Source of the DNA: Escherichia coli
Lineage (GTDB): Bacteria > Pseudomonadota > Gammaproteobacteria > Enterobacterales > Enterobacteriaceae
Reading direction: 5' to 3' (one strand)
Length of the DNA: 64,000 nucleotides
NCBI RefSeq assembly: GCF_044324875.1
Contig: NZ_CP172185.1
The notes beneath the pieces are model-generated. The model was given only the letters and a program-made list of their open reading frames with translations. It searched no databases and was not told where the DNA came from. The translations under genes were made by a program, and so were the position numbers. Within the stretch, counting starts at the first letter, position 1. Each line of letters begins with the position of its first letter. This document shows, piece after piece, positions 11,065-44,359 of this stretch.

Positions 11065-11378
11065 AACAGTCAATTGTCTCACTGGCGCAAGTCATTCGTT
11101 CGAAAAATGCCGGACCTTACGAACTGGTTTTAGATATTTTATTTAAAACCAAAGAAAACTATGAGCGAGTTAAATCATCAGGGCAATTAACCCCAGAACT
11201 GATTGCGCGCTTATATCATGTTGAACCTGACTTTATTCATCGTATTGTCTGGTTTGATCCTTCTAACGCAGTAAAAATCGTCATGCCACGAGATATTATC
11301 TCCGGGAATGTAGGTGACAATGATGTCTATGGTGCACAGCAACATGCACCTTTATTAAATATGAGTTTCGATTTGTAA
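11061..11378 (+). CDS. small conserved protein, 105 aa, probable partner of the AtuA-like protein (DUF4387-type by recollection)
   Basis: Start overlaps the stop of the preceding ORF (ATGA), indicating translational coupling. Confidence 0.45.
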   Translation: MKQSIVSLAQVIRSKNAGPYELVLDILFKTKENYERVKSSGQLTPELIARLYHVEPDFIHRIVWFDPSNAVKIVMPRDIISGNVGDNDVYGAQQHAPLLNMSFDL

Positions 11379-11461
11379 AAATCCGAATACTTTTAGCCAA
11401 CTGACATCCCGTCACTTATTGCAGTTCAACACTTCAGCTATTTGTAAGGTTGTAATAGCAG

Positions 11462-11512
11462 GTAGATGCCTGAATCTCTATTCAGACATCTACTTCTCCT
11501 GATTCTGATTTA
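11462..11512 (+). terminator. extended hairpin (14-bp stem, one mismatch) followed by a T-rich tract
   Basis: gtagatgcctgaat-ctct-attcagacatctac followed by ttctcctgattctgattt; sits between the small ORF and the symporter gene. Confidence 0.4.
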
Positions 11513-11538
11513 TCGCCGTGCACCTGATGGAGGAAAAA

Positions 11539-12819
11539 ATGAAGAAAATAAGTTTAACCACGATGATTCTTTTGGCACTGGTACTTGGAATGATTATCGG
11601 CGTAGTGCTCAATAACACTGCTTCACCGGAAACCGCAAAACTCTATGCGCAAGAAATATCGATATTCACGACGATTTTCTTACGACTGATAAAAATGATT
11701 ATCGCTCCGTTAGTGGTCTCTACCCTGGTGGTAGGTATAGCTAAAATGGGCGATGCCAAAGCCCTTGGTCGTATTTTTTCTAAAACACTCTTTTTATTTA
11801 TTTGCGCCTCATTGCTGTCAATTGCCTTAGGCTTGATAACAGTAAATTTCTTCATGCCAGGCACAGGAATTAATTTTGTTGCACACGGAGCCGAAACCAC
11901 CGGAGTGGTCGCGTCAGAACCCTTTACGCTAAAAGTATTTATTTCGCATGCTTTCCCCACCAGCATTGTCGATGCCATGGCGCACAATGAAATTTTGCAA
12001 ATCGTAGTGTTCTCAATTTTCCTCGGCTGTAGCCTGACGGCGATTGGCGAGAAAGGCAGCGCCATCGTTCACGCCTTAGATTCGCTGGCACATGCCATGT
12101 TAAAGCTCACTGGCTACGTCATGCTCTTCGCTCCCCTGACCGTATTCGCCGCTATTTCAGCATTGATTGCTGAACGAGGACTGGCAGTTATGGTGAGCGC
12201 CGGGATCTTTATGGGTGAATTTTATTTCACCATGTTGTTACTTTGGGTGCTGCTTATCGGTCTGGCCATCGTTTATGTCGGCCCCTGCATCAGACGCCTG
12301 ACCCGCGCCCTTTCGGAACCCGCTCTGCTGGCATTTACCACATCCAGTTCTGAAGCGGCTTTTCCGGGAACGCTTGAAAAACTGGAGCAATTTGGCGTTT
12401 CCCCCAAAATTGCCAGCTTTGTCTTACCCATTGGCTACTCATTTAATCTCGTTGGATCAATGGCCTACTGCTCCTTCGCCACAGTTTTCATCGCCCAGGC
12501 CTGCAATATCCATTTATCCATCGGTGAGCAAATCACCATGCTGTTGATCCTGATGTTGACCTCGAAAGGAATGGCTGGCGTACCACGCGCCTCAATGGTG
12601 GTTATCGCCGCCACGCTCAACCAGTTCAATATTCCGGAAGCGGGGCTGATCTTGCTGATGGGCGTTGATCCGTTCCTTGATATGGGGCGTTCCGCGACAA
12701 ACGTCATGAGCAACGCAATGGGCGCTGCGATGGTGAGTCGGTGGGAAGGCGAACATTTCGGCGAGGGTTGTCGGGGTAAAGCATTAAAACCCAATGAATC
12801 GAACGTTGCTCTGCCCTGA
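11539..12819 (+). CDS. dicarboxylate/amino acid:cation symporter (DAACS family, GltP-like); probable glutamate or C4/C5-dicarboxylate carrier
   Basis: Multi-pass hydrophobic protein with DAACS-like sequence; start chosen at the ATG 5 nt after a GGAGG (11529..11533). Confidence 0.75.
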   Translation: MKKISLTTMILLALVLGMIIGVVLNNTASPETAKLYAQEISIFTTIFLRLIKMIIAPLVVSTLVVGIAKMGDAKALGRIFSKTLFLFICASLLSIALGLITVNFFMPGTGINFVAHGAETTGVVASEPFTLKVFISHAFPTSIVDAMAHNEILQIVVFSIFLGCSLTAIGEKGSAIVHALDSLAHAMLKLTGYVMLFAPLTVFAAISALIAERGLAVMVSAGIFMGEFYFTMLLLWVLLIGLAIVYVGPCIRRLTRALSEPALLAFTTSSSEAAFPGTLEKLEQFGVSPKIASFVLPIGYSFNLVGSMAYCSFATVFIAQACNIHLSIGEQITMLLILMLTSKGMAGVPRASMVVIAATLNQFNIPEAGLILLMGVDPFLDMGRSATNVMSNAMGAAMVSRWEGEHFGEGCRGKALKPNESNVALP

Positions 12820-12926
12820 GGGGGATCTTAAGCAATCAGAAGCCAATGACTACGCATTTTTATAAGCCGGATCATGAAGTTAGACGGCAATTAAGTAACA
12901 CTAACGTTTAAGGTGAAAAGTGAAAT

Positions 12927-14579
12927 ATGTCCAAACCATTTATCTGGCAAGAACCGTTTCTACAAAATAAAGACGGTACAGAATATACATTAATTAGCGA
13001 TCAACATATTACAGTAACGGAATTAGACGGCGAAGAAGTGATAAAAATCGCTCCTGAAGCATTAACGCTGCTTGCCCGGCAGGCATTTTATGAAGCCTCT
13101 TTTTTCTTACGTTCCGCTCATTTGCAACAGGTCGCCAGCATTCTTAACGATCCGCAGGCCAGTAGTAATGATAAATACGTTGCGTTGCAGTTATTACGTA
13201 ATGCTGAAGTCTCAGCAAAAGGGGTATTACCCAACTGTCAGGATACCGGCACCGCAACTATTGTTGCCAGTAAAGGGCAACAGATATGGACGGGAGGTAA
13301 CGACGCTGAAGCCTTAAGCAAAGGCATTTACAGTACTTTCCAGGAAAATAATCTGCGCTTTTCACAAAATGCGCCGCTGGATATGTATACCGAAGTCAAT
13401 ACGCAAACCAATCTCCCGGCGCAGATTGATATCAGCGCTGTCGCTGGTAATGAGTACCATTTTCTCTGTGTTAATAAAGGGGGCGGCTCCGCCAATAAAG
13501 CCGCACTTTATCAGGAAACCAAATCCTTATTGCAACCAGAAAAACTGACCGCATTTTTAATCGAAAAAATGAAATCGCTGGGCACCGCTGCCTGCCCGCC
13601 TTACCACATCGCCTTTGTCGTCGGAGGGCTTTCAGCCGATCAAACCTTAAAAGTTGCCAAGCTGGCCTCTACGAAATATTACGACAATTTGCCCACCAGC
13701 GGAAACGAGCAGGGACAAGCATTCCGTGATATTGAGCTGGAAAAAGTGTTGCTCGAGGTCAGTCAGCAATTTGGTATTGGTGCGCAATTTGGGGGTAAAT
13801 ATTTCGCTCATGATATTCGCGTCATTCGTCTGCCGCGTCACGGTGGCTCTTGCCCGATAGCTATGACGCTCTCCTGTTCTGCCGATCGCAATATCAAAGC
13901 AAAAATTAACAAGCACGGTATCTGGCTGGAAAAACTCGAACACAATCCGGGGCAATATATTCCAGCCTCACTGCGGGAAGAAAATCACGCGCAACATGTA
14001 CAACTGGATCTAAACCGTCCGTTGCGTGACGTGATGCAGGATCTCGCCAGATTACCGGTAGGCACCCGCGTGTCGTTAAGTGGTCCCATCGTAGTGGCAC
14101 GCGATATCGCCCACGCCAAAATAAAAGCGCGGCTGGATAACGCCGAACCGATGCCGGATTACCTGAAGCATCATATTGTCTATTACGCTGGCCCGGCGAA
14201 AACACCGGAGAACATGGCCTGCGGTTCACTGGGTCCAACCACGGGCGGTCGAATGGACGGTTATGTCGATACCTTCCAGGCGGCTGGCGGCAGTCTGGTG
14301 ATGTTATCGAAAGGTAACCGCAGCCAGCAGGTCACCGATGCCTGTCACAAACATGGTGGCTTCAATCTGGGTAGTATTGGCGGTGCAGCTGCGTTACTGG
14401 CGCAAGAATATGTCAAAAGTCTGCGTTGCCTGGAATACCCGGAGCTGGGTATGGAAGCGGTGTGGATGATGGAAGTGGAAAATCTGCCCGCATTCATCCT
14501 GGTAGATGATAAAGGCAATAATTTCTTTAGTCAGTTTGAGCAGCAACACCGCTGCGCCAGTTGCCCTGCGGGACATTAA
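12927..14579 (+). CDS. fumD: class I fumarate hydratase family protein (FumA/FumB paralog); probable mesaconase (2-methylfumarate hydratase)
   Basis: 550 aa, collinear high similarity to E. coli FumA (...[11 protein letters not shown]..., ...[13 protein letters not shown]..., ...[13 protein letters not shown]...); location in a methylaspartate-pathway cluster; the fumD name is recalled from E. coli O157:H7 work. Confidence 0.8.
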
Positions 14580-14588
14580 GGAAAATGA

Positions 14589-15191
14589 ATGGAAGCGCGA
14601 ATTTCAACTGAACGGCATGTGCAGCGCCAGCAGAAATTGAAGGAACAGGTCGATACGCGCATCGCGGCGGCGATAGAGAAAAAAGGGATTTTGATTGTTT
14701 TCACCGGCAATGGCAAAGGGAAATCCACTGCCGCGTTTGGTACTGTGACGCGCGCGGTGGGTCATGGCAAAACGGTGGGGGTTGCGCAGTACATCAAGGG
14801 GCAATGGGACAACGGCGAATACAACCTTCTCCAGCCGCTGGGGGTTGAGTTTCATATTATGGGAACCGGTTTTACCTGGGAGACACAGAACCGGCAAGCG
14901 GATATCGACGCGGCGAAAGAGGTCTGGTCGGAAAGCAAACGGATGCTGGCTGACAAGCGTTACGACTTAGTGGTGCTTGATGAGCTGACCTATATGCTGG
15001 CTTACCATTATCTGGATACCGAAGAAGTGATCGCTTCTCTGCAAAACCGCCCGGCACAACAAAGTGTCATTGTCACCGGACGCGGTTGCCACAGTCAGAT
15101 ATTAAAAATGGCGGATACGGTCAGCGAAATCCGCCCCGTCAAACATGCTTTTGATAACGGCATTCAGGCCCAGCCGGGTATCGACTGGTAA
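14589..15191 (+). CDS. cob(I)yrinic acid a,c-diamide / cob(I)alamin adenosyltransferase (BtuR/CobA/CobO family)
   Basis: ...GILIVFTGNGKGKSTAAFG...GHGKTVGVAQYIKG...VVLDELTYM...VIVTGRGC...SEIRPVKHAF... is near-collinear with E. coli BtuR. Confidence 0.85.
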   Translation: MEARISTERHVQRQQKLKEQVDTRIAAAIEKKGILIVFTGNGKGKSTAAFGTVTRAVGHGKTVGVAQYIKGQWDNGEYNLLQPLGVEFHIMGTGFTWETQNRQADIDAAKEVWSESKRMLADKRYDLVVLDELTYMLAYHYLDTEEVIASLQNRPAQQSVIVTGRGCHSQILKMADTVSEIRPVKHAFDNGIQAQPGIDW

Positions 15192-15194
15192 TAA

Positions 15195-15226
15195 CTGCGC
15201 CTGGCATCCCGCCAGGCGCAGGTTTT
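15195..15226. terminator. convergent (bidirectional) intrinsic terminator between the adenosyltransferase gene and the LysR gene
   Basis: ctgcgcctggc-atccc-gccaggcgcag followed by gtttta on the + strand; both stop codons abut the hairpin. Confidence 0.6.
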
Positions 15227-16130
15227 ACATCTCCTGCGGTACAACCGATTTCGCCAGCAACCATTCACGAAATTGCTGCAAGTGCGGTGAGTCAGACTTC
15301 TCTTCCTGCCACGTCATAATAAAACGATTACCGGTACGAATAGGCACATCACAGGGGATCACCATATCGCCACTATCCAAATCATGTTGAATAGCGAAAC
15401 GTGGTAACAGCGCCACGCCGAGATTAGAGCGCACGGCGGCAATCAGCATTGAAAGCAAATCGAAACGTGGTCCGTTGTTGACCAGCGGACTGCTAACGCC
15501 AGATAAGGCAAACCACTCTTCCCAGCCAGTAATACGGGTACTTTGATGCAGAAGTGGTAACTCTGTAAGCAGTTCTGCCACTGACAGTTTTTGATCGGAC
15601 ATTGCAAGCAAACTGCCGCTGCATACCGGCAAAATCTCCTCATCAAAGAGATATTCTACTTCCGCCCAGGGCGCGCAAAAATTTTCGCGCATAATGACAG
15701 CATCGTACTCCCGATTAAGAAAATCGCCGTTATTAGCTAAAGAGTGAATATTAACAATAATATCGGGATGTAACTTTGTGAATTCATGTAAATTTGGGAT
15801 TAACCAGTGGGTACTAAACGTAGGATTCACGGCAAGTTCAATAACCTGAACCGTAGGCTGCCAGGTCATAATGGTATTGGTATCGCGTTCCAGCTTATTT
15901 AATGTTTCTTTTACTATCCCCAGGTAATACTTCCCTGCATCATTAAGAAAAATACGTTTTTTAGAGTGTGAAAATAACGGAGTATGTAAAAATTCCTCCA
16001 GCGCACTCACTTGTCTGAATACTGCACTTTGGGTCAACGCTAACTCCTCTGCCGCTTTGGTATAACTTTCATGACGTGCGACGACCTCAAAAGTCACCAG
16101 CAGCTCCGTTTTAGGTATTTTTCCTCGCAT
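15225..16130 (-). CDS. LysR-family transcriptional regulator
   Basis: N-terminal HTH (...FEVVARHESYTKAAEELALTQSAVFRQVSALEEFL...) and typical about 300-aa length. Confidence 0.85.
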   Translation of the reverse strand: MRGKIPKTELLVTFEVVARHESYTKAAEELALTQSAVFRQVSALEEFLHTPLFSHSKKRIFLNDAGKYYLGIVKETLNKLERDTNTIMTWQPTVQVIELAVNPTFSTHWLIPNLHEFTKLHPDIIVNIHSLANNGDFLNREYDAVIMRENFCAPWAEVEYLFDEEILPVCSGSLLAMSDQKLSVAELLTELPLLHQSTRITGWEEWFALSGVSSPLVNNGPRFDLLSMLIAAVRSNLGVALLPRFAIQHDLDSGDMVIPCDVPIRTGNRFIMTWQEEKSDSPHLQQFREWLLAKSVVPQEM

Positions 16131-16693
16131 AATGCCGTCCCTTAAAAATAGTTTAAACCATCAAAAATACATTACTTATTACGAAGTAATGGTAACCAAA
16201 GCAGCAATAAATAATTTATAAGAATCATGATTGACATTTATAACCCAGTAAGCCTGGCGTGACAAATATCTTAATCAGATAATAATAATCCGAAAAGCAC
16301 AGCGCCTTTCGAATTATCCGGAATCACATTAAGTGAAAATTATTAAATTGATATCATTTATCATATCTGTGGATATTATGATAAACAATCAACAAAGATT
16401 TTATTTTTGATTTATAGCATATCCCTCTAAGAATTTTTGCGATGCTGCAATATCCGGGGTAAAGACCCGATCCTGGCTGACAAATGGCACGACTTGACGA
16501 TAAGCGGTGAACATCGCTTTTGTTGATTTACTTAACGCTACGGTCAAACGCTGGGAAGCCAGTGCATCAGGTAACGATTCGAAATTCGCCGTCGTTCTTA
16601 TTCGTGGCTTGCGGTCGGTTGCGGCAATCCACAGTGGCTGTGGTCATGCAGTCAAGCCAGCGGTCAGATTTCGACCGTGGTTAACATTTAAGG

Positions 16694-16800
16694 CATAAAA
16701 AAGGCCATCATACGATGGCCAACCATGTCGAAACCGACAACCCTTCGCCATTCCTGTAGAGGGAAGCGGCGAGGGCTATTTCTTATTACAGATATTTATT
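16694..16800 (-). ncRNA. sdhX: SdhX (RybD) sRNA derived from the sucD 3' UTR, with its intrinsic terminator
   Basis: Hairpin ggccatcgtatgatggcc followed by a U-run on the minus strand about 75 nt after the sucD stop; SdhX is known to be processed from this 3' end. Exact 5' end not determinable here. Confidence 0.5.
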
Positions 16801-23114: not shown

Positions 23115-23305
23115 GATTTCCTGCATTTCTTTTGTAGGCCGGATAAGGCATTCACGCCACATCCGGCGCTGTTTGCCTGATGCGACGCTTGCGCGTCTTA
23201 TCAGGCCTACGATTTCTGCATTTCTTTTGTAGGCCGGATAAGGCGTTCACGCCGCATCCGGCACTGGTTGCCTGATGCGACGCTTGTGCGTCTTATCAGG
23301 CCTGG
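23115..23305. repeat. BIME (REP pair) unit tandemly duplicated, two copies of about 96 bp, in the sdhB-sucA intergenic region
   Basis: Unit gatttc(c)tgcatttcttttgtaggccggataaggc.ttcacgcc.catccggc...gcctgatgcgacgcttg.gcgtcttatcaggcct occurs twice head-to-tail (23115..23210 and 23211..23305) with a few substitutions. Confidence 0.8.
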
Positions 23306-28590: not shown

Positions 28591-28917
28591 ATGGCTGAAC
28601 ATAATAAATTGTAAAAATTAAACCAGATGCAAATACCCATTAATAAGGTGAAAAAATGTGACAAGTCACATACTGAGCAGAATGATAAGTTTATTTTTAT
28701 ACTTTCCTGCCGGTAGCATTTTTAACCCAATGAAAATTATGCATATCCATCCCACCCCATCTTTCATCTCATTAAACAATAAATTTATGCACTCAATTAT
28801 TCCATTCTTTATATAACAAGCTTTTTAATATTGTTAAATAAAACCAAATACATTCAACTGTCAGTTAATATATTCTTGCCTCGCAACACTCTATCTCATT
28901 ATTTAAAGGACTCAGCT

Positions 28918-29484
28918 ATGTTTAAAGGACAAAAAACATTGGCCGCACTGGCCGTATCTCTGCTGTTCACTGCACCTGTTTATGCGGCTGATGAAGGATC
29001 CGGTGAAATTCACTTTAAAGGTGAAGTTATTGAAGCACCGTGTGAAATACATCAGGATGATATTGATAAAGAGGTTGAACTCGGTCAGGTGACCACCAGC
29101 CACATTAATCAGTCGCATCACAGCGATGCCGTTGCTGTCGACCTGCGCTTAGTCAACTGCGATCTGGAAAACTCCAACAACGGTTCCGGCGGCAAGATTT
29201 CTAAAGTTGCAGTCACCTTTGACAGCTCAGCGAAAACCACCGGCGCAGATCCGATTCTCAACAACACCAGCACGGGTGAAGCGACCGGTGTCGGCGTGCG
29301 TTTAATGAATAAAGATCAAAGCAATATCGTTTTAGGCACCGCTACTCCAGATATCGACCTGGCACCAACCTCCAGCGAACAAACGTTAAATTTCTTTGCG
29401 TGGATGGAACAAATTGATCAGGCTACGCCCGTAACACCAGGCGCAGTTACGGCGAATGCAACCTACGTGCTGGATTATAAATAA
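28918..29484 (+). CDS. ybgD: fimbrial major subunit (chaperone-usher fimbriae)
   Basis: MFKGQKTLAALAVSLLFTAPVYA signal peptide; about 188 aa; RBS AAGGA upstream of the chosen ATG; first gene of the subunit-usher-chaperone-adhesin set. Confidence 0.85.
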   Translation: MFKGQKTLAALAVSLLFTAPVYAADEGSGEIHFKGEVIEAPCEIHQDDIDKEVELGQVTTSHINQSHHSDAVAVDLRLVNCDLENSNNGSGGKISKVAVTFDSSAKTTGADPILNNTSTGEATGVGVRLMNKDQSNIVLGTATPDIDLAPTSSEQTLNFFAWMEQIDQATPVTPGAVTANATYVLDYK

Positions 29485-29534
29485 GTATCACTTTGGCGGC
29501 GCTATCGCCGCCTTTCTTCAAATATTTATCAGGT

Positions 29535-31994
29535 ATGGACACCGTGAATATTTATCGACTCTCTTTTATATCCTGCCTGGTCATGGCGATACCTTCCGCA
29601 TTGGCGGTCGAATTCAACCTGAATGTCCTCGATAAATCGATGCGAGATCGCATTGATATTTCATTATTAAAGGAAAAAGGAGTCATTGCTCCCGGTGAAT
29701 ATTTTGTTAGCGTTGCGGTGAATAACAACCAAATCAGTAATGGGCAAAAAATCAACTGGCAAAAAAAGGGTGACAAAACCATTCCATGCATCAATGATTC
29801 ACTGGTCGATAAATTTGGTTTAAAACCAGATATCCGTCAGTCCTTGCCACAGATAGATCGGTGTATTGATTTCAGTTCCCGACCTGAAATGCTCTTCAAT
29901 TTCGATCAAGCCAATCAGCAACTGAATATTAGTATTCCGCAAGCCTGGCTGGCGTGGCACTCAGAAAACTGGGCTCCCCCCTCTACATGGAAAGAAGGTG
30001 TTGCCGGTGTCCTGATGGATTACAACTTGTTTGCCAGCAGCTACCGCCCACAGGACGGCAGCAGCAGCACTAATCTGAATGCCTACGGTACCGCCGGAAT
30101 TAACGCCGGGGCATGGCGCTTACGCAGTGATTACCAGCTTAATAAGACCGATAGCGAAGATAACCATGACCAGTCAGGCGGAATATCGCGCACCTATCTT
30201 TTTCGTCCATTACCGCAATTAGGCTCTAAGTTAACCCTCGGCGAAACCGATTTCAGTTCCAATATTTTCGACGGCTTTTCTTATACCGGCGCGGCACTGG
30301 CAAGTGACGATCGGATGTTACCGTGGGAGCTACGCGGCTACGCCCCACAAATCAGCGGCATTGCACAAACCAACGCCACCGTCACCGTGAGTCACTCAGG
30401 GCGAGTTATTTACCAGAAAAAAGTCCCACCAGGTCCGTTTATCATTGATGACCTTAATCAGTCCGTCCAGGGTACGTTGGATGTCAAAGTGACGGAAGAA
30501 GATGGTCGGGTGAACAATTTCCAGGTTTCGGCAGCATCGACTCCTTTCCTGACTCGCCAGGGACAGGTTCGCTATAAATTGGCCGCGGGTCAGCCACGGC
30601 CCTCCATGTCACATCAAACTGAAAATGAAACCTTTTTTAGCAATGAAGTTTCCTGGGGGATGCTGTCAAATACCTCGCTGTACGGCGGCCTGCTGATTTC
30701 GGGTGACGACTACCATTCTGCCGCAATGGGTATCGGGCAAAATATGCTCTGGCTTGGTGCATTGTCGTTTGATGTCACCTGGGCCAGTAGTCAGTTTGAT
30801 ACTCAGCAGGACGAGCGGGGCTTAAGTTACCGCTTTAATTACAGCAAACAAGTGGATGCCACTAACAGCACGATTTCGCTCGCCGCTTATCGCTTCTCAG
30901 ATCGTCATTTTCACAGCTACGCCAACTATCTGGATCACAAATACAACGACAACGATGCGCAGGACGAAAAACAGACGATCAGCTTATCCGTGGGGCAACC
31001 GATTACCCCACTGAACTTCAATCTGTACGCCAACCTGCTGCATCAAACCTGGTGGAATGCAGACGCCTCCACGACCGCCAACATCACGGCGGGTTTTAAT
31101 GTTGATATTGGTAACTGGAGAGATATCTCGATCTCGACGTCATTCAATACAACCCATTACGAAGATAAAGATCGCGACAATCAGATTTACCTGTCGATTT
31201 CGCTCCCCTTCGGTAACGGGGGGCGGGTCGGTTATGACATGCAAAACAGTAATCACAGCACCACGCACCGCATGTCGTGGAATGATACGTTAGATGAACG
31301 TAATAGCTGGGGCATGTCTACCGGACTGCAATCCGACCGTCCGGATAATGGAGCCCAGGTGAGCGGTAACTATCAGCACCTGAGTTCAGCGGGTGAGTGG
31401 GATATTTCTGGTACCTATGCCGCCAATGATTACAGTTCCGTCAGCAGCAGCTGGAGCGGTTCTTTCACGGCAACTCAATATGGTGCGGCGTTCCATCGTC
31501 GCAGCTCCACCAATGAACCACGCCTGATGGTCAGCACCGATGGCGTGGCAGATATTCCGGTTCAGGGCAATCTCGACTACACCAACCATTTTGGCATTGC
31601 GGTGGTGCCGTTGATTTCCAGTTATCAGCCTTCCACCGTGGCGGTGAACATGAATGATTTACCCGACGGCGTAACAGTGGCAGATAACGTTATCAAAGAA
31701 ACGTGGATTGAAGGCGCGATAGGTTACAAATCACTGGCTTCCCGTTCCGGTAAAGACGTTAACGTCATCATTCGCAACGCCAGCGGTCAGTTCCCTCCCC
31801 TCGGAGCGGATATCCGCCAGGAGGATAGCGGCATTAGCGTGGGGATGGTTGGCGAGGAAGGACACGCCTGGTTAAGCGGAGTCGCTGAAAATCAACAATT
31901 TACCGTGGTCTGGGGTGATAGTCAGCATTGCTCGCTCTATCTTCCTGAACATATGGAAAACACCGCAAATCGACTGATTTTACCTTGTCATTAA
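29535..31994 (+). CDS. ybgQ: fimbrial outer-membrane usher protein
   Basis: About 820-aa protein with signal peptide; usher position and size. Confidence 0.85.
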   Translation: MDTVNIYRLSFISCLVMAIPSALAVEFNLNVLDKSMRDRIDISLLKEKGVIAPGEYFVSVAVNNNQISNGQKINWQKKGDKTIPCINDSLVDKFGLKPDIRQSLPQIDRCIDFSSRPEMLFNFDQANQQLNISIPQAWLAWHSENWAPPSTWKEGVAGVLMDYNLFASSYRPQDGSSSTNLNAYGTAGINAGAWRLRSDYQLNKTDSEDNHDQSGGISRTYLFRPLPQLGSKLTLGETDFSSNIFDGFSYTGAALASDDRMLPWELRGYAPQISGIAQTNATVTVSHSGRVIYQKKVPPGPFIIDDLNQSVQGTLDVKVTEEDGRVNNFQVSAASTPFLTRQGQVRYKLAAGQPRPSMSHQTENETFFSNEVSWGMLSNTSLYGGLLISGDDYHSAAMGIGQNMLWLGALSFDVTWASSQFDTQQDERGLSYRFNYSKQVDATNSTISLAAYRFSDRHFHSYANYLDHKYNDNDAQDEKQTISLSVGQPITPLNFNLYANLLHQTWWNADASTTANITAGFNVDIGNWRDISISTSFNTTHYEDKDRDNQIYLSISLPFGNGGRVGYDMQNSNHSTTHRMSWNDTLDERNSWGMSTGLQSDRPDNGAQVSGNYQHLSSAGEWDISGTYAANDYSSVSSSWSGSFTATQYGAAFHRRSSTNEPRLMVSTDGVADIPVQGNLDYTNHFGIAVVPLISSYQPSTVAVNMNDLPDGVTVADNVIKETWIEGAIGYKSLASRSGKDVNVIIRNASGQFPPLGADIRQEDSGISVGMVGEEGHAWLSGVAENQQFTVVWGDSQHCSLYLPEHMENTANRLILPCH

Positions 31995-32008
31995 TTAAGG
32001 AAATGAAA

Positions 32009-32740
32009 ATGACATTTATGAAAGGACTACCCCTTTTGTTGTTGGTTGCCAGTCTGTGCAGCCACGCTGCACTACAACCCGATCGCACTCGTATTGTGTT
32101 TAACGCTAATGATAAAGCTACCAGTCTGCGCGTGGATAATCGTAGCGATAAACTCCCCTACCTCGCTTATTCCTGGCTCGAAAATGAAAAAGGGGAGAAA
32201 AGCGACGATCTTCTGGTCGCCCTGCCACCGATACAACGTCTGGAACCGAAAGCAACAACGCAGGTACGGATAGTAAAGCAAGCCTCGACCACAAAATTAC
32301 CGGGCGATCGCGAAACGCTATTTTTCTACAATATGCGTGAAATTCCTCCCTCCCCAGAAAAAAACAGCGGCCATGCCGTTCTGCAGGTCGCCATCCAGAG
32401 TCGTATCAAGGTGTTCTGGAGACCGTCTGCGTTACGCAAGAAAGCAGGAGAAAAAGTCGAGCTACAGTTACAAGTCAGCCAGCAGGGCAATCAACTTAAC
32501 TTAAAAAACCCGACCGGCTATTACCTGACAATCGCCTACCTGGGACGAAATGAGCAAGGTATTCTCCCGGGCTTCAAAACCGTGATGGTTGCGCCTTTTA
32601 GTACGGTCAACACAAACACCGGAAGTTATAGCGGCAGGCAGTTTTATCTCGGTTATATGGATGATTACGGCGCGTTACGCATGACGACGCTCAACTGCAG
32701 CGGACAATGCCGTTTACAAGCAGTGGAGGCGAAGAAATGA
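32009..32740 (+). CDS. ybgP: fimbrial periplasmic chaperone
   Basis: About 243 aa with signal peptide ([20 protein letters not shown]); start chosen by RBS spacing, exact start uncertain. Confidence 0.8.
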
Positions 32741-33798
32741 GTACTGGCAAAGGATTGTTGCTCGTCATCTGTCTGGTATTTCTGCCATTGAAGTCTGCGC
32801 TAGCGCTGAACTGCTATTTTGGTACTTCCGGCGGAACGGTAGAAAAATCGGAAGCAATTCAACCCTTTGCTGTGCCAGGTAATGCCAAACCCGGCGATAA
32901 GATCTGGGAATCTGACGATATTAAAATTCCCGTCTATTGTGACAACAATACCAACGGCAACTTTGAAAGCGAACATGTCTACGCATGGGTAAACCCCTAC
33001 CCGGGGGTACAGGATCGTTATTATCAACTCGGCGTGACATACAATGGTGTCGATTACGATGCCAGTCTGGGGAAAAGCCGCATCGACACCAACCAGTGTA
33101 TCGACAGTAAGAACATTAACATTTATACCCCTGAGCAGATTATCGCGATGGGCTGGCAGAACAAAATATGCTCGGGTGACCCCGCTAATATTCACATGTC
33201 GCGAACCTTTCTCGCTCGTATGCGGTTATACGTTAAGATTCGCAAAATGCCGCCGCATGATTATCAAAGTACGCTTAGCGACTATATCGTCGTGCAATTT
33301 GACGGTGCCGGTAGCGTTAACGAAGACCCTACCGCCCAAAACCTGAAATATCATATTACTGGTCTGGAAAACATTCGCGTGCTGGATTGCAGCGTCAATT
33401 TTTCCATTTCACCGGAAACACAGGTGATTGATTTTGGTAAATTTAATTTGCTGGATATTCGTCGCCACACAATGTCGAAAACATTCAGTATTAAGACGAC
33501 AAAATCACAAAATGACCAATGCACCGACGGATTTAAAGTCAGTTCCTCCTTTTATACCGAAGAAACGTTGGTTGAAGAAGATAAAGCACTGCTGATTGGT
33601 AATGGTCTGAAGCTACGTTTGCTGGATGAAAACGCCTCGCCTTATACCTTCAATAAATATGCTGAATACGCCGATTTCACCAGCGATATGCTGATCTACG
33701 AAAAAACCTATACGGCTGAACTTTCGTCCATTCCAGGTACCCCCATCGAGGCTGGCCCCTTCGATACAGTGGTGCTTTTTAAGATTAACTATAACTGA
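32737..33798 (+). CDS. ybgO: fimbrial adhesin-like tip protein
   Basis: 353 aa with signal peptide ([23 protein letters not shown]); start overlaps the ybgP stop. Confidence 0.8.
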
Positions 33799-33949
33799 TT
33801 TGCCATGATGCCCTTTGCAGCCGGAAAGGGCATCTCTTTCAGAAAATTGCTGATTTTCCCCTTTTCCTTGATTGCTGTTATTTTTTCCTGGCCCGGCTTT
33901 CTTTATGCTGTATCGATACACCAAAGAAAAAATAATGAGGGAACGAAGG

Positions 33950-34996
33950 ATGCCAGTTTTGCAGTGGGGAATGTTATGTGTGCTCTCACTTCTCCTTTCT
34001 ATTGGTTTCCTCGCGGTTCATCTCCCGGCGGCGCTATTACTTGGGCCGATGATCGCCGGGATCATCTTTAGTATGCGCGGAATTACTCTGCAACTTCCCC
34101 GCTCTGCTTTTCTCGCCGCCCAGGCCATTCTTGGCTGCATGATTGCGCAAAACCTCACTGGTTCGATTCTCACCACGCTGGCCGTCAACTGGCCGATCGT
34201 GCTTACAATTTTACTGGTGACGCTGCTTTCCAGCGCCATTGTTGGGTGGCTACTGGTGCGCTATAGCTCATTACCTGGAAATACCGGTGCCTGGGGTTCT
34301 TCTCCTGGCGGCGCGGCGGCAATGGTCGCTATGGCGCAAGATTACGGCGCAGATATTCGCCTGGTGGCGTTTATGCAATATCTGCGAGTGCTGTTCGTCG
34401 CGGGGGCCGCTGTTCTGGTCACCCGCATGATGCTGGGTGATAACGCTGAAGCGGTTAACCAGCAAATCGTCTGGTTCCCTTCAGTGAGCATTAATCTCCT
34501 GCTTACGATTTTGCTCGCAGTCGTTGCCGGTACAGTGGGATGCTTGCTACGTCTTCCTTCCGGCACGATGCTCATCCCGATGCTGGCGGGCGCAGTGCTC
34601 CAGTCTGGTCAGCTCATCACCATCGAACTACCGGAATGGCTGCTTGCGATGGCGTATATGGCAATTGGTTGGCGGATTGGTCTTGGTTTCGATAAACAAA
34701 TATTACTGCGGGCATTGCGCCCGCTGCCACAAATCCTGCTGTCGATTTTTGCTCTGCTGGCTATTTGTGCGGGTATGGCGTGGGGACTGACCCGATTTAT
34801 GCACATTGATTTTATGACTGCCTACCTCGCCACCAGCCCCGGCGGGCTTGATACCGTGGCGGTCATCGCCGCAGGGAGCAATGCCGATATGGCGCTTATT
34901 ATGGCGATGCAAACCCTGCGCCTGTTCAGTATTTTGCTGACGGGGCCAGCCATTGCGCGGTTTATTTCAACCTATGCGCCGAAACGGTCGGCCTAG
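33950..34996 (+). CDS. abrB: AbrB-family membrane protein (putative regulator of aidB expression / transporter-like)
   Basis: [38 protein letters not shown]...; multi-pass hydrophobic; 348 aa when started at MPVLQWG. Confidence 0.85.
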
Positions 34997-35784
34997 TGCT
35001 GGCAGCCCGGACACCAGTAAAACGGGCGCGAGGACAGCGTGGTTTTCTCAATGATGCTGCCACAGCGTTCACACGGTTCGCCATCACGATGAAAAACCTT
35101 AAAGCGAAACAACGCCCCATGATGTTTATTCTCATCCACCTGCCCCCGCGTAGCGTAAGAAAGTCGAGGAATATCCAGTAACGCGTCTGCGAGTGCATCC
35201 AGTTGCGCCGCACTGAGATCTTTCGCTTTATGATTGCCGGTTAACCCCACCTGCCAGAGGATCTCCACCCGCAAATAATTACCAAGTCCTGCCAGAAACG
35301 CCTGATCGAGCAGTAATCCAGCAAACTGACGGTTACGAAAGCGCGGCGACAATAATCGTTCCTTTACCACCTCTGGCGTCAGATTCGGATCCAGCACATC
35401 TGGACCAACGCGTTGTAAAAACGGATGCGTGGTCAGTTGTTCCGGGGTCAACATCTCAATATCCGAGGCGCTATAAAGCAGAATGGTTTTGTCAGCCGTT
35501 TGCAGTTTTACCCGCAATACTCGCGTGGTCTGCGGCTCTTCGCCGGTTTCAACCACGCGCCAGACGCCGTAAAGCTGATTATGGCTGTAGAGCGTTAAGT
35601 CGTTGGAAAAATGAGTTAACAACGCCTTACCACGCGTTTCCACATGGGTAACGTGTTGACCGATAAGTCGTGATTGATAAGATTTTAACTGCGGGAAGGC
35701 AAACCAGACATCAGTTAGTGGTTTGCCTTTGATCGCCGCCTCCAGGTTATCCGCTGCACGGCGGATCTCCGGGCCTTCAGGCAT
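34993..35784 (-). CDS. nei: endonuclease VIII (DNA glycosylase/AP lyase)
   Basis: [33 protein letters not shown]... with catalytic Pro2/Glu3 and C-terminal zinc finger (CERCGS...CPGCQ). Confidence 0.95.
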
Positions 35785-35819
35785 GGTGATATCCTTTTTT
35801 CATTCTTTATTAAGCGGGG

Positions 35820-36554
35820 TTATGCTGCGACAACAATCCCCTTTTCGGCAAATGTAGAGCGTAGTCGGCGGGCGAACGCCAGTGCGTGCTCGCCATCGCC
35901 ATGCAGGCAGACCGTTTGCGCCGTGACCGTTGCCCATTCGCCGGTGATGCTTTTGACTCTGCCGTGTTGCACCATCTCCAACGTTTGCGCCAGCGCCTGT
36001 TCTTCGTTTTCAATCAACGCGCCTGGCTGGCTTCGCGGCACCAGCGAACCGTCTGCCTGATAACCGCGATCGGCAAACACTTCCTCGCGCGTTGTCAGGC
36101 CATATTGCTTGCCTGCACGAATCAGCTCGCTTCCTGCCAGCCCGACGAGAATCAATACCGGATCGCAAGCGTATACCGCTCTGGCGATGGCGTCTGCCAG
36201 TTGTGCCTCTTTCGCCGCCTGGTTGTATAACATGCCGTGCGGTTTGACATGACACATTACGCCGCCTTGCGCACGGGTAATCGCTGCCAGCGCGCCAATT
36301 TGATACAGCGTCTGGGCGTAAACGGTTTCTGGCGGCAGCTGCATGGCGCTGCGACCAAAATTTTCCCTGTCGGGAAAACTCGGGTGAGCGCCAATCGCGA
36401 CACCATTTTTTATTGCTTCACGCACGCAAGCCTGCATGGTTTGCGCATTGCCTGCATGAAATCCACAGGCAATATTGGCAGAGGAAACCAGCGTTAATAG
36501 CTCTGCGTCGCTGGCGCAGCCTTCGCCCAGATCGGCGTTCAGATCAATTTTCAT
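35820..36554 (-). CDS. pxpA: 5-oxoprolinase subunit A (LamB/YcsF family)
   Basis: [36 protein letters not shown]...; 244 aa. Confidence 0.9.
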
Positions 36555-37476
36555 TGTGCAGCCGCCACGCTAATTGTTCGAAATAACGTTGCTGATCTTG
36601 CCGTGCTTTCAGTGCCTCTTCCAGTGAACACTGGACAAAATGAATCGGCTGACCGAGCGGAATTTGCGCCAGATGGTACATATCAGCCTCAATGATACAG
36701 GCAATACGCGGATAACCACCCGTGGTCTGTGCGTCGTTCATTAACACAATGGGCTGCCCGTTATGCGGCACCTGCACCACACCCGGTAACAAACCGTGAG
36801 ATAACAGTTCGCGATCGGTGGTGCGTTTTAAAATTTGCCCCTGTAAGCGATAGCCCATTCGGTTACTTTGCGAGCTAAGCTGCCAGGGCGAACGCCAGAA
36901 TGCATCCTGCGAGGCGCGATCGAACTCATGATATTCCGGCCCCGGCAAGGCGCGAATGCGGTTGCCCCACAGCAACTGTTTAACGCCCTGCGCTTCCATA
37001 AAATCACGCTTCGATTTGCCCATCGGAAGTCGGTCACCATCCTTCAGTAAACGGCCTTCCAGCCCGCCAATCCCCACTTTGAGATCGGTGCTGCATGACC
37101 CCATTACCGGCGGAACATCAATACCACCCGCGACCGCCAGATAACTGCGCATCCCGTGCTGCGGGCGTTTAAGCGTTAAACGCTGGCCTGCTTTCATCGG
37201 CAATCGCCAGCCAGTCCAGACGGCATTATCATCCAGCCGCGCTTCGCAACCTGCCCCCGTCAGGGCAAACCACCCATCAGTTTCGAACTCTACCGTTAAC
37301 TGACCGAGCGTGATCTCCAGCGCGGGGGCATTGGCGTCATTACCCACCAGCAGGTTAGCAATGCGTAACGCAGGCATATCCAGTGCGCCGCAGTGGCTGA
37401 TACCCGACTGGCGAAAACCGTGACGACCGCCATCCTGCACAGTGGTATACATGCCCGCACGAATAATCTTCAGCAT
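36544..37476 (-). CDS. pxpC: 5-oxoprolinase subunit C (allophanate hydrolase subunit 2-like)
   Basis: 310-aa ORF between pxpB and pxpA with overlapping start/stop; K-12 ybgK position. Confidence 0.85.
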
Positions 37477-38126
37477 ACTCCCTCCTTCTGCGGTACAAAG
37501 CGCACGCTGTCTCCCGGACGTAATAAGATGGGTTCGTCACGCGCCGGATCAAACAGGCTGAGTGAGGTATGACCAATCAACTGCCAGCCCCCCGGCGTTG
37601 CCAGCGGATAAACACCAGTCTGCGGCCCGCCGATCCCGACAGAACCTGCCGGAACGAGCAAGCGCGGTTCAGCGCGACGTGGCGTGTGTAGTTGTTCCGG
37701 CAAACTCCCGAGATACGGGAAGCCCGGTTGAAAACCTAAAAACCAGACCACGTATTCCACGGAGGAGTGCAATTCAACAACCTGTTTTTCGCTCAACCCA
37801 CAATGCGCCGCGACCACCGCCAAATCCGGTCCGCCTGCGCCACCGTAAACCACCGGAATTTCAATAAAACGAGACTCCGGCTCCAGCGCCTCACTCTCCT
37901 CCCACCAGCGTTGCAAACGCTCTATGGCATCCAGTGCCAGCGACTCAGGATTACGTAAAATCACCGTGATATTGTTCATGCCGGGAATGGCTTCAACCAC
38001 ATTCGGCATATCCACCAGACGCTGCGCCAGTCGCCAGATCCGTTTCTGGCTAGCCAGCGTCACCGGCGGTTCCAGCTCCAGCACTACCGCCGTTTCACCT
38101 ATCAGATAACAACGCGCTCGTTGCAC
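37470..38126 (-). CDS. pxpB: 5-oxoprolinase subunit B (allophanate hydrolase subunit 1-like)
   Basis: 218-aa ORF; K-12 ybgJ position and length. Confidence 0.85.
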
Positions 38127-38148
38127 TTTCGATCCCTCTGATTATTCG

Positions 38149-38892
38149 TTATGCAGGATTAGGAATATCAATAAAGGTCACATCAAGATCGGTATTTTCA
38201 TTCAGCCACTCGCTCAATGCGCGAATACCACCGCGTTCAGTGGCATGGTGACCCGCAGCATAAAAATGCAATCCCTGCTCGCGGGCTGAATGAATGGTCT
38301 GTTCTGAAACTTCGCCAGTAATAAAAGCATCCACGCCAAAACGCGCGGCGCTATCGATAAAACTTTGCCCGCCGCCCGTGCACCAGGCAACGCGCTGGAC
38401 CACCTCAGGTCCGGTATCGCCACACCATAACGGCTTACGTCCCAGACGCGCTTCAATCCAGGAGGCTAGTTCCAGTCCCGGCACAGGCATGGTCAGTTCG
38501 CCCCACGGCACCAACGGCTCAATTTCGCCCATGACCGTGATCCCCAGTAACGCCGCCAGCTGTGCGTTATTGCCCAGCTCAGGATGTGCGTCAAGCGGCA
38601 AATGCCAGCCATACAGGTTGATATCATTTGCCAGCAACGTTTTTAAACGGTTACGCTTCATTCCGCGAATGACCGGAGATTCGCCTTTCCAGAAGTAGCC
38701 ATGATGCACAATGACCGCATCCGCGCCCAGACGCACTGCCTCATCGAGCAAAGCCTGGCTGGCAGTGACACCGGTAACAATTTTTTGCACCGTCTCTTTG
38801 CCTTCCACCTGCAAACCATTCGGCGCGTAATCACTAATCGCCGCGCTGTTCAGTTTTTCGTTAATCAGTTGTTCCAGTTCGGTGTTTTTCAT
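38149..38892 (-). CDS. ybgI: Nif3-family metal-binding protein (GTP cyclohydrolase 1 type 2 homolog)
   Basis: 247-aa ORF MKNTELEQLINEKLNSAAISDYAPNGLQVEGKETVQKIVTGVTAS... Confidence 0.9.
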   Translation of the reverse strand: MKNTELEQLINEKLNSAAISDYAPNGLQVEGKETVQKIVTGVTASQALLDEAVRLGADAVIVHHGYFWKGESPVIRGMKRNRLKTLLANDINLYGWHLPLDAHPELGNNAQLAALLGITVMGEIEPLVPWGELTMPVPGLELASWIEARLGRKPLWCGDTGPEVVQRVAWCTGGGQSFIDSAARFGVDAFITGEVSEQTIHSAREQGLHFYAAGHHATERGGIRALSEWLNENTDLDVTFIDIPNPA

Positions 38893-38979
38893 CTTCGCGC
38901 CTTCCGTATTCTGATAGCTACACCGTTAACATAGCGTTACCTCGCCTGTTCGTCGATAGCCAATCTTTTGACATATTAA

Positions 38980-40644
<1,665 letters not shown>

Positions 40645-40685
40645 CAGGCCAGCACCATGCCTGATAAAACGCTCGCTGCGTTTTA

Positions 40686-42104
40686 TCAGGCTCCTTTCCT
40701 CGCTTCTTCGTACGCTGCCAGCGTTCGCAGCCTTGCCTCTTTATGATCAACTATCGGTTGCGGATAATCCAGCGTCACACCTGATTTATCTGCCCACTTC
40801 CACGGCTCATGCACCACTTTCCCTGGCACATCGCGCAGTTCCGGTAGCCACTGGCGGATAAACTCGCCTTCGCGGTCAAATTTCTCGCCCTGGGTTGTCG
40901 GGTTAAAAATACGAAAATACGGCGCTGCATCGGTTCCGGTTGAAGCGGCCCACTGCCAGCCACCGTTATTAGCTGCCAAATCACCATCAATCAGCTGCGA
41001 CATGAAATATCGCTCGCCTTCGCGCCAGTCGATCAACAAATCTTTCACCAGAAAACTGGCTGTAATCATCCGTAGCCTGTTATGCATCCAGCCAGTGCTG
41101 TTAAGCTGACGCATGGCAGCATCGACAATCGGGTATCCCGTTTTGCCTTCCTGCCAGGCCTGTAAATGTGCGGGATTGCTCTGCCACTGCACACGATCCG
41201 TCCAGGCAATAAACGGACAATGTTTACACAACGAGGGGTAATACGTCATCAGATGACGGTAGAACTCGCGCCAGATCAGCTCACTAAGCCAGACACTACC
41301 GGCCCCACCGTCCAGCGCCTGCGGCTGTTCCGCCAACAAGCGATGCAAACACTGGCGAGGCGATAACCCGCCCGTTGCCAGGCTGGCGGACAAACGACTG
41401 GTGCCTTCCACTGCCGGAAAATCTCGTTGTTGCTCATATTCTCCGGCACCGTTCTGGCAAAACTGGCGTAATTGCGCAATCGCAGCTTTTTCTTCCACCG
41501 GGAAATGCGCAGTATCGAAAGGCTGACGAGGATAATTCAGCGTAATGGATGGCGCGGGAGCTATCGATCCGCTACTACGTACTTTTGGCGCAGCGACGCA
41601 CTCCGGCATCCCTTCTCGCAGCCGTTTCAGCCAGGCGTTTTTAAATGGCGTAAAAACTTTGTACATCTCATGATTGCCAGTCATCACCGCCCCCGGCGGC
41701 AGGATCACGCTGTCATCAAATCCTTCACACACCACGTTACGCAGCGTTCTCTCAACCTGCACATCCCGCGCCCGCTCATTCACCTCATACTGATAGTTAT
41801 AAAAAAGATGAGTAACGCGGTTTTCCGCGCACACCTGATTAACTGTTTCGACACTGGCGGCAAAGTCATCCACTTCACGGAACAATAAAGGAATACCTTT
41901 TTCTGCCAGTGCTGTTTGTAGCCCGTTCAGTTGCGCATTGATAAATTCAGCCTGACGCGGCGACATATTATGCGCTGCCCACTGGCGCGGTGTGGCTATA
42001 TACAGCGCCAGCACGCGTGCAGACGAATTGCGGCAGGCGGCAGCCAGTGCGAGATTATCGTGCAGACGTAAATCCTGGCGAAACCAGACCAGATGGGTAG
42101 TCAT
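40686..42104 (-). CDS. phr: deoxyribodipyrimidine photolyase
   Basis: MTTHLVWFRQDLRLHDNLALAAACRNSSARVLALYIATP...; start set at MTTHL, overlapping the ybgA stop (ATGA). Confidence 0.93.
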   Translation of the reverse strand: MTTHLVWFRQDLRLHDNLALAAACRNSSARVLALYIATPRQWAAHNMSPRQAEFINAQLNGLQTALAEKGIPLLFREVDDFAASVETVNQVCAENRVTHLFYNYQYEVNERARDVQVERTLRNVVCEGFDDSVILPPGAVMTGNHEMYKVFTPFKNAWLKRLREGMPECVAAPKVRSSGSIAPAPSITLNYPRQPFDTAHFPVEEKAAIAQLRQFCQNGAGEYEQQRDFPAVEGTSRLSASLATGGLSPRQCLHRLLAEQPQALDGGAGSVWLSELIWREFYRHLMTYYPSLCKHCPFIAWTDRVQWQSNPAHLQAWQEGKTGYPIVDAAMRQLNSTGWMHNRLRMITASFLVKDLLIDWREGERYFMSQLIDGDLAANNGGWQWAASTGTDAAPYFRIFNPTTQGEKFDREGEFIRQWLPELRDVPGKVVHEPWKWADKSGVTLDYPQPIVDHKEARLRTLAAYEEARKGA

Positions 42105-42610: not shown

Positions 42611-42694
42611 TACTGCTCCTGAACGGTTTACAGGAGTAAGTGTAGACGGCAGTATTGAAAAAACGAAACGAATAAATGAGATCGGTAAAGAAAT

Positions 42695-43102
42695 TCAATA
42701 ACTCATAATAAATTTCATGGTGGCGATAAATAGTTTCTTTTCTTCATCACTCATGGTAGAAGCGTTTAACATGTTGCCATAAAATTTACTGATGATATTT
42801 TTTAATTGCAGCAAATGCAAAGGAGAAAAATAGTCACTCCCGATGAGATTACTCAATACCAGCAATAATTCTCCATTATATAAATAACCTACCATAAGAT
42901 TAATCTCTATCATCTCAATTGCTTTTTGTACAGCAAGCGCTGGTAAGATATTCTGACGAAGCATTTTGGCAATATCATTTTCATCCAGTTCATCCGGTGT
43001 TTTATCCAATAAAGAGTTATACCAGTTTATTAAACCACTTTTGAAAGCGAATGAATCATATTGCAGGTGATAAATCTGTTTTAGGGTTTCTTTATTTTTC
43101 AT
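42695..43102 (-). CDS. hypothetical small protein, 135 aa, low-GC
   Basis: ORF in an AT-rich block; 12-bp gap from the upstream 94-aa ORF; no recognisable family. Confidence 0.45.
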   Translation of the reverse strand: MKNKETLKQIYHLQYDSFAFKSGLINWYNSLLDKTPDELDENDIAKMLRQNILPALAVQKAIEMIEINLMVGYLYNGELLLVLSNLIGSDYFSPLHLLQLKNIISKFYGNMLNASTMSDEEKKLFIATMKFIMSY

Positions 43103-43114
43103 TTTATAATGTCT

Positions 43115-43399
43115 TTATTTGCTATGATTTTTCTGATTTAATTCTATATCATTTAAAGCATTTTCAAGCCAATCATCCATGTTCTTAATTTTAGCCCGCT
43201 CATACAAATCATGCACAACATCTTCATAACGCCGTCCATCATTGACCATACAATTAGCTGTATGAGGCAGAACATGTATAAAATCAGACAATATAAAACA
43301 AGCCTTTGCATTTCCAGAGTTAGCTGCAGTTCTGATATCAATCAAGCCTCTGGCAATTAATTTAAGAATAACACTAACATCTTGCATTTTAATTTCCAT
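43115..43399 (-). CDS. hypothetical small protein, 94 aa, low-GC
   Basis: ORF in an AT-rich block, tandem with its neighbours. Confidence 0.4.
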   Translation of the reverse strand: MEIKMQDVSVILKLIARGLIDIRTAANSGNAKACFILSDFIHVLPHTANCMVNDGRRYEDVVHDLYERAKIKNMDDWLENALNDIELNQKNHSK

Positions 43400-43481
43400 A
43401 TCATCCAGTTAAATTTTAGTCGTAAATCGTCTATCTAAAAAAGATGAAATTAACATTTATAAATTTATTACAATATAAAAA

Positions 43482-43835
43482 TCAAAAATATACATCATCA
43501 GCTTCTACTGAAAACTCCATGGCTCCTAAGGCACCTAAATCAATACTAAATATGGTATCACTTTCCTTAGCACTCCCAACATAGATAAAATAGCCTAAAT
43601 CCCCATCCTGACCTATCAAAAAATAGTCAGGCTCCACTCGTTGAATATCATATGTTTCATTTCTTTCAATAAGATCAGAATAGTTATACAGATATAATAT
43701 TTCATGCTTCTTATTAGTTATTTCATAGGCCTCACTATCTTTAATTTCTTCTATTAAGAAACGTTTATACACTGGAGGAAATTTGATTGACATGTCAAAT
43801 TCAATTTTATTTATATATTCTATGATTTTATTCAT
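43482..43835 (-). CDS. hypothetical small protein, 117 aa; possible SUKH/Smi1-Knr4-like immunity protein
   Basis: FPPVYKRFLIEEI... near the N-terminus and ...FLIGQDGDLGYFIYVG... later resemble SUKH-family motifs by eye; low-GC. Needs a profile search. Confidence 0.4.
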   Translation of the reverse strand: MNKIIEYINKIEFDMSIKFPPVYKRFLIEEIKDSEAYEITNKKHEILYLYNYSDLIERNETYDIQRVEPDYFLIGQDGDLGYFIYVGSAKESDTIFSIDLGALGAMEFSVEADDVYF

Positions 43836-44074
43836 GTTAAGAATACCTGAGCGGTTAATTATCGGTTATTGTGATGAATATATATTCGCTTTTAATTTTC
43901 AATAACTCATCACGGAAATACATATTGCTTTGTAGGCAAGCGCTAATAATACTTTATGAACCTGACTTCCGCCAGATATTCAACCTAAATATTCATGACG
44001 CAGTAATGTTTTAGAAAGCCACTAACTGCCCAGATAGTGCATCATCTACTACATTGGCGATTATACTCTAAATA

Positions 44075-44272: not shown

Positions 44273-44302
44273 ATTCCAGTTCCTTGTGCTGCGATCCTAA
44301 CC

Positions 44303-44337: not shown

Positions 44338-44359
44338 CAATGTATTCAGAACTCAGCAA

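Follow-up and report, generated by a model that had tools for sequence, protein, structure and literature searches.

FumD, a class I fumarase with mesaconase activity, within the methylaspartate-pathway island of an Escherichia coli chromosome

In the 64,000-nt stretch of Escherichia coli DNA analysed here (the window), positions 12927..14579 (+) very probably encode FumD, the third class I ([4Fe-4S]) fumarase, found in a minority of E. coli strains; it would serve as the mesaconase at the third step of the methylaspartate route. This is not a discovery: the gene and the kinetics of its product have been known since 2015, as have its distribution and clustering; in that year ECs0757 was cloned, purified anoxically and named FumD by Kronen and Berg (PLoS One 2015; PMC4682846), and later literature accepts FumD as the third class I fumarase (PMC10602362). 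What remains of value is a clean-up of the FumD and CmlAB annotations, together with the question of when E. coli uses the route and which role it plays in the gut and in pathogens.

An ORF check of the window found the fumD reading frame intact from ATG to TAA, exactly at 12927..14579, with 550 residues. The protein is identical to ECs_0757 of E. coli O157:H7 Sakai at 541 of 550 positions (98%), without gaps and in syntenic location; length, C-terminus, gene order and an island between cydA and sucD are features that it shares with the published ECs0757 / ECATCC700728_0849. On the NCBIfam equivalog model NF011921 it scores 1279.6 bits (cut-off 1060), whereas it fails both the FumA model NF011919 (924 vs a cut-off of 1105) and the FumB model NF011920 (920 vs 1094). 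Two Pfam domains lie in the single chain and together span residues 50-536: Fumerase (PF05681) at residues 50-325 (E 1e-73) and Fumerase_C (PF05683) at 331-536 (E 6e-78). With these two domains, the cysteines and the catalytic residues, FumD has the make-up of a single-chain FumA-type class I (Fe-S) fumarate hydratase. A two-subunit enzyme of the MesAB kind is not what we see, as fumD is one 550-aa ORF and beta-subunit-type models cover only residues 363-540, with scores below their cut-offs. The initial annotation had described a full-length class I (Fe-S) fumarase collinear with FumA, which agrees with the end-to-end alignment at 68% identity and with both Pfam domains; it had also named FumD as a sequence to compare with, but the gene itself went unrecognised as fumD. 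Of 5426 complete E. coli genomes, 1121 carry fumD at an identity of at least 95%, labelled "class I fumarate hydratase"; RefSeq gives no more than this label, and the Sakai record says "fumA". The 2015 paper put the frequency of the gene at 26.5% among E. coli and at 90.6% among O157:H7 strains (PMC4682846).

For residue mapping we used the closest solved relative, Leishmania major FH-2 (5L2R, E 4e-211), with ligand identities and residue roles taken from bioRxiv 10.1101/2022.09.03.506457. The alignment, which holds one constant offset, places C104, C223 and C317 of FumD on the cluster ligands Cys133, Cys252 and Cys346 of the L. major enzyme, and D106 and H305 on its catalytic acid pair Asp135/His334. 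T438, T439 and R442 correspond to Thr467, Thr468 and Arg471, and the substrate-binding residues Gln134, Arg173, Gly216, Arg421 and Lys491 are Q105, R144, G187, R392 and K462 in FumD. The three ligand cysteines and ten active-site residues are invariant across FumA, FumB and FumD. FumD thus shares the chemistry of the class I fumarases, and it is the substrate preference that differs.

Aligned end to end, FumD is 68% identical to K-12 FumA and 67% to FumB, with one 1-residue gap near the N-terminus and a short difference in length at the C-terminus. FumA and FumB are 90% identical to each other (dN 0.067), while dN from fumD is 0.24 to fumA and spans 0.24-0.26 over fumA and fumB. FumD consequently falls outside the FumA/FumB paralog pair, which is defined by a mutual identity of ~90% and by the FumA/FumB cut-off. 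Judged by these distances, fumD is no recent fumA copy, so that the recent duplication considered in the initial annotation is not borne out. The remark made there that the C-terminus is unlike that of FumA holds true as well: FumA ends in IQLTQCTRCVK and FumB in IVNKQCANCTK, both differing from the last 14 residues of FumD (letters not shown), which is two residues longer overall. A CxxC pair (C543 and C546 in FumD) is common to all three tails, and the CxxCPAG-type tail is retained in FumD orthologs from other genera. Compared with its Buttiauxella ortholog, fumD has a pN of 0.08 and a pS of 0.76, which indicates purifying selection.

The kinetics published for the Sakai protein bear directly on function (PMC4682846). 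With mesaconate, FumD had a Vmax of 292 U/mg, a Km of 0.15 mM and a kcat/Km of 2x10^6 M-1 s-1; with fumarate, the values were 671 U/mg, 0.9 mM and 7.5x10^5 M-1 s-1. (S)-Citramalate was dehydrated with a kcat/Km of 1.1x10^5, and the enzyme was fully active only when handled anoxically. We infer that these kinetics carry over to the window allele from the 98%-identical protein that was tested. A lack of activity on mesaconate, which the initial annotation had allowed for, is hence not what the literature reports, and the use of mesaconate proposed there is upheld; "dedicated", the word chosen there for the mesaconase, goes too far, because mesaconate is preferred by only ~2.7-fold and the higher of the two Vmax values is that on fumarate. 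FumD is a promiscuous enzyme and not an exclusive mesaconase. Its paralogs FumA and FumB resemble it in the two-domain single chain, the three Cys ligands, the catalytic residues, the CxxC pair and the ability to hydrate mesaconate; they differ from it in overall sequence, in the C-terminal tail, in having NCBIfam models that FumD does not pass and in a reversed substrate preference.

Similar activities are known from other bacteria. Burkholderia xenovorans has a class I fumarase/mesaconase and Methylotuvimicrobium alcaliphilum has FumI; like FumD, both are single-chain Fe-S hydratases, for which mesaconate is a substrate equal or superior to fumarate (PMC4682846; PMC10602362). Unlike fumD, their genes have no linkage to glutamate mutase; this comparison draws on the published descriptions of the two enzymes. 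Both belong to a distant branch, FumI having 507 aa and ~25% identity to FumA/FumB (PMC10602362). The clostridial MesAB has the same pathway role as FumD and is likewise clustered with glutamate mutase and methylaspartase, but it consists of alpha and beta subunits, belongs to a tartrate-dehydratase-related branch and is of independent origin (PMC4682846). The next step differs as well, being catalysed by a CitDEF-type citramalate lyase in clostridia, while the island in the window carries an unrelated AtuA/DUF4387 pair.

The gene is part of a 14-kb island (2724..16692) between cydA and sucD/SdhX that is absent from K-12. In a blastn comparison, K-12 homology ends at 2723 and restarts at 16693, and K-12 has mngR-mngA-mngB at this site. 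The right edge of the island lies 2 nt away from the region homologous to the SdhX sRNA (16695-16795, minus strand), which is kept at 98.6% identity. The order of genes is glmS-glmL-glmE-mal-cmlA-cmlB-transporter-fumD-cobO, followed by a convergent LysR gene. Upstream of fumD and on the same strand are glmS for the B12-binding subunit S of glutamate (methylaspartate) mutase (5148..5597; NF002612 and TIGR01501 above cut-offs, in line with the RefSeq annotation), glmL (mutL) for the reactivating accessory protein of this mutase (5597..6985; NF040745, 507 bits with a cut-off of 475), glmE for its catalytic subunit E (7004..8449; TIGR01503, 863 bits) and mal for the mesaconate-producing methylaspartate ammonia-lyase (8449..9690; TIGR01502, 544 bits); all four exceed the curated cut-offs of their models. 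The position downstream of methylaspartase and a symporter noted in the initial annotation is thus correct: a DAACS-family dicarboxylate/amino acid:cation symporter is encoded at 11539..12819 (+). This transporter scores similarly on the DctA (312 bits) and GltP (302 bits) models and passes neither curated cut-off, so that the substrate entering the island pathway is not assignable. cobO (14589..15191, +), encoding cob(I)yrinic acid a,c-diamide adenosyltransferase (TIGR00708 and NF004637 above cut-offs), starts 9 nt past the fumD stop codon and would provide adenosyl-B12 for glutamate mutase. The clustering of fumD with glutamate mutase and methylaspartase was described already in PMC4682846.

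Between mal and the transporter gene there are two overlapping ORFs on the plus strand, encoding an AtuA-family protein (9694..11064) and a DUF4387 protein (11061..11378). Both match over their full length: the former is identical to chain A of PDB 9ERQ at 417 of 456 positions (91.4%), and the latter matches chain B (E 5e-57). The depositors of PDB 9ERQ/9EVF named chain A "Citramalate lyase, subunit A (cmlA)" and chain B "subunit B (cmlB)", and the ORFs appear as their CmlA and CmlB orthologs. The function is also stated in a preprint that used the Raoultella enzyme (bioRxiv 10.64898/2026.01.16.699985); our literature search found no primary CmlAB publication, only the PDB molecule names and this one preprint. 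Both genes are mislabelled in the Sakai record, as "3-methylaspartate ammonia-lyase" and "acyl-CoA synthetase", and RefSeq lists them as AtuA-family and DUF4387 proteins. In the 2015 study, the DUF1446 gene of the cluster had no function assigned, and citrate lyase, isocitrate lyase and methylisocitrate lyase failed to cleave (S)-citramalate (PMC4682846). The putative CmlAB assignment is an addition to that picture, in which the fate of (S)-citramalate stood open. By gene order, cmlAB is a citramalate-consuming candidate pair upstream of fumD, with the symporter gene in between; if the assignment is correct, the pair would be a dedicated consumer of the FumD product, which strengthens the mesaconase role.

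According to this proposal, glutamate would be converted to (2S,3S)-3-methylaspartate by the B12-dependent GlmSE, which GlmL would reactivate and for which CobO would make the adenosylcobalamin, and Mal would then release NH3 from methylaspartate to give mesaconate. FumD, a homodimeric hydro-lyase sensitive to oxygen, would hydrate the double bond of mesaconate, yielding (S)-citramalate and keeping a strong fumarase activity, and CmlAB would finally cleave (S)-citramalate to pyruvate and acetate. Given the depositors' names and the one use in a preprint, the island seems to hold genes for all steps by which glutamate would become pyruvate, acetate and ammonia; we infer glutamate breakdown as the physiological direction. 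The role of FumD in vivo is putative, as cluster expression was unseen in the laboratory (PMC4682846). Should the PDB names hold, about one fifth of E. coli genomes would possess a B12-dependent pathway, complete and self-contained, that turns glutamate into pyruvate and acetate.

Counts from consensus promoter and terminator scans of the island were not above those of shuffled controls, with one hairpin after cobO as the sole standout. This terminator-like structure (15195..15221; a consensus match with an 11-bp stem including 9 GC pairs) is stronger than any other of its kind in the island and lies between cobO and the convergent LysR-family regulator gene (15225..16130, minus strand), whose product resembles GcvA-type regulators below their cut-off. 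It is the probable end of the operon. Gene spacing and the lack of a strong terminator suggest that fumD is co-transcribed with the genes upstream. At Rfam gathering thresholds applied to the whole window, no cobalamin riboswitch or other regulatory RNA was found in the island. The same search gave two tandem naRNA4 copies (RF02564, REP-derived; 77.6 and 86.8 bits) at 23137-23302 (+), between sucA and sdhB. At the left end of the island there are two low-GC hypothetical ORFs on the plus strand (3153-4097 and 4178-4600), of 314 aa and 140 aa, which correspond to ECs_0767 and ECs_0766. For the 314-aa ORF, which has 38% GC, there was no NCBIfam, PADLOC or significant Pfam match; for the 140-aa ORF there was none in PADLOC, the one database scanned.

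A homolog search revealed 550-aa FumD orthologs with 80-87% identity in Citrobacter, Enterobacter, Buttiauxella, Klebsiella, Salmonella (salamae, diarizonae) and E. fergusonii. Proteins of the Pseudescherichia group have 552 aa and are 75-77% identical to FumD, and relatives from Hafnia, Yersinia and Providencia have 548-550 aa and ~70% identity. Linkage to the pathway is not confined to E. coli, contrary to a possibility that the initial annotation had raised, but recurs in Buttiauxella, Pseudescherichia and Hafnia. In Buttiauxella, the whole cluster together with a glutaminase gene is located at an unrelated chromosomal site, whereas in Pseudescherichia it occupies the site known from the window, flanked by cydA and sucD, there without cobO. 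Since the linkage of fumD to the cluster persists at the Buttiauxella site, adjacency to sucD is not the conserved feature. In Hafnia, the 70% relative is encoded beside LysR and CobO genes, ~6 kb from glmS-mutL-glmE, and a LysR gene adjoins fumD in all three genera. For the Providencia relative (69% identity), there were no glutamate-mutase neighbours within 10 kb. The Hafnia relative just described is a class I fumarase encoded on a Hafnia alvei metagenome scaffold (L009, 1-12254) and is 70% identical to both FumD and FumA; cobalamin biosynthesis genes lie between its gene neighbourhood and glmS-mutL-glmE, and the protein has a FumA-like C-terminus, yet N103, N183, G307 and G440 as in FumD.

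The FumD clade has 25 fixed positions that differ from the residue shared by FumA and FumB. Among them N183, G307, G440 and S461 are found beside catalytic residues: A183N precedes the KGGGS loop, A307G follows His305, A440G follows the Thr438-Thr439 catalytic base and A461S precedes Lys462. At all four positions (FumD numbering) L. major FH, FumA and FumB have Ala, so the FumD states are derived. That these four substitutions shift this branch of the class I fumarases toward the methyl-substituted substrate is a tentative idea which we regard as rather doubtful; according to it, the two Ala-to-Gly changes (A307G, A440G) would create space for the methyl group, and the rare A314T allele of the window strain might retune the enzyme further. 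In the literature examined, we found no structural basis of mesaconase specificity. The Hafnia/Yersinia/Providencia group also has N183, G307 and G440, even in the Providencia protein whose gene lacks the linkage, and only S461 and the C-terminal tail are specific to FumD. We considered N103, N183, G307 and G440 as markers of cluster-linked mesaconases and rejected them, since the Providencia relative has these residues without glutamate-mutase neighbours. They are thus clade markers and at most candidate determinants of specificity.

Two other views of the role of FumD have to be weighed. It could mainly be a spare fumarase isozyme for the TCA cycle or fumarate respiration, its action on mesaconate reflecting a promiscuity general to class I enzymes. 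FumA and FumB hydrate mesaconate too (with 4% and 19%, respectively, of their efficiency on fumarate; PMC4682846), the Vmax of FumD is higher on fumarate than on mesaconate, the island directly adjoins the sdh-suc TCA-cycle operon, and the Providencia relative has most of the substitutions flanking the active site in the setting without glutamate-mutase neighbours just described. Yet the kcat/Km of FumD is ~9-fold below that of FumA on fumarate and ~8-fold above it on mesaconate (PMC4682846), and fumD travels with glmSLE-mal-cmlAB even at the other chromosomal site in Buttiauxella, which makes a spare fumarase a very improbable reading. The second view accepts the pathway but not glutamate as its substrate: the island would use imported C5-dicarboxylates (mesaconate, citramalate or methylaspartate), for example mesaconate from host itaconate, and FumD may run in reverse. 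In this variant, citramalate would be converted via mesaconate and methylaspartate to glutamate. All steps are reversible, including the dehydration of (S)-citramalate by FumD; the transporter scores equally on DctA (C4-dicarboxylate) and GltP (glutamate), below both cut-offs; and in published tests glutamate neither supported nor stimulated anaerobic growth, nor did it induce the cluster (PMC4682846). On the other hand, the equipment of the island is that of the classical catabolic methylaspartate pathway: the B12-dependent mutase comes with a reactivase and an adenosyltransferase of its own, and a lyase forming pyruvate and acetate acts after it. In addition, the glutaminase in the clusters of some relatives (Buttiauxella; PMC4682846 Fig 5) points to a supply of glutamine or glutamate. 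We therefore consider the use of imported C5-dicarboxylates unlikely, and prefer FumD as mesaconase of glutamate breakdown.

A further doubt concerns the enzyme of this particular strain. Nine residues differ between the window and Sakai proteins (window to Sakai: P76Q, N175D, V243I, V278A, T314A, N405S, A406G, D411E and V447I), and fumD differs from that of the closest complete genome by a single nucleotide, G940A at window position 13866, leading to A314T. Residue 314 is three before the cluster ligand C317, and the change might weaken cluster binding or catalysis and thereby impair the enzyme. This position is otherwise Ala or Gly throughout, with Ala in 68 of 68 FumD cluster representatives, in L. 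major FH and in 32 of 32 Hafnia/Providencia-type sequences, while FumA and FumB have Gly; the change is, moreover, the only one that separates fumD from the gene of the closest complete genome. The reading frame is intact, though, Thr is a small residue, and the exact 61-mer with the Thr codon is present in 16 of the ~1120 fumD-positive complete E. coli genomes, and these 16 come from different hosts. T314 is a real minority allele and not a sequencing error, and its recurrence in 16 genomes means that the allele is inherited and persistent. Impairment of FumD in the window strain seems a remote prospect on these grounds.

Six metagenome-derived sequences (P0074, P0076, P0081, P0084, P0085 and P0087) were set aside because FumA-type and FumD-type signatures or C-termini are mixed in them; P0085, for example, combines 85% identity to FumA with the tail of FumD. 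Chimeric assembly of the two paralogs is the probable cause. Carriage of E. coli fumD on plasmids was likewise rejected, the 4.9-Mb and 0.73-Mb "plasmid" records being mislabelled chromosomes or fragments; apart from these, the plasmid matches were limited to FumA in Pantoea and a copy with 77% identity on a Salmonella plasmid of 416 kb.

Outside the island, two further regions of the window attracted our attention. At 42649-44355, a segment of ~1.7 kb has three small minus-strand ORFs (42695-43102, 43115-43399 and 43482-43835), which may be orphan immunity-type genes; in VCSW7, the closest genome, this site is occupied by SymE, a gene of the barstar family and an Rhs gene of 4.6 kb. The region from the ybg fimbrial genes to dtpD (28906-40691) is 88.5% identical to O157:H7 Sakai, with flanks at ~98%, and 97.5% identical to VCSW7, which suggests a divergent recombination tract.
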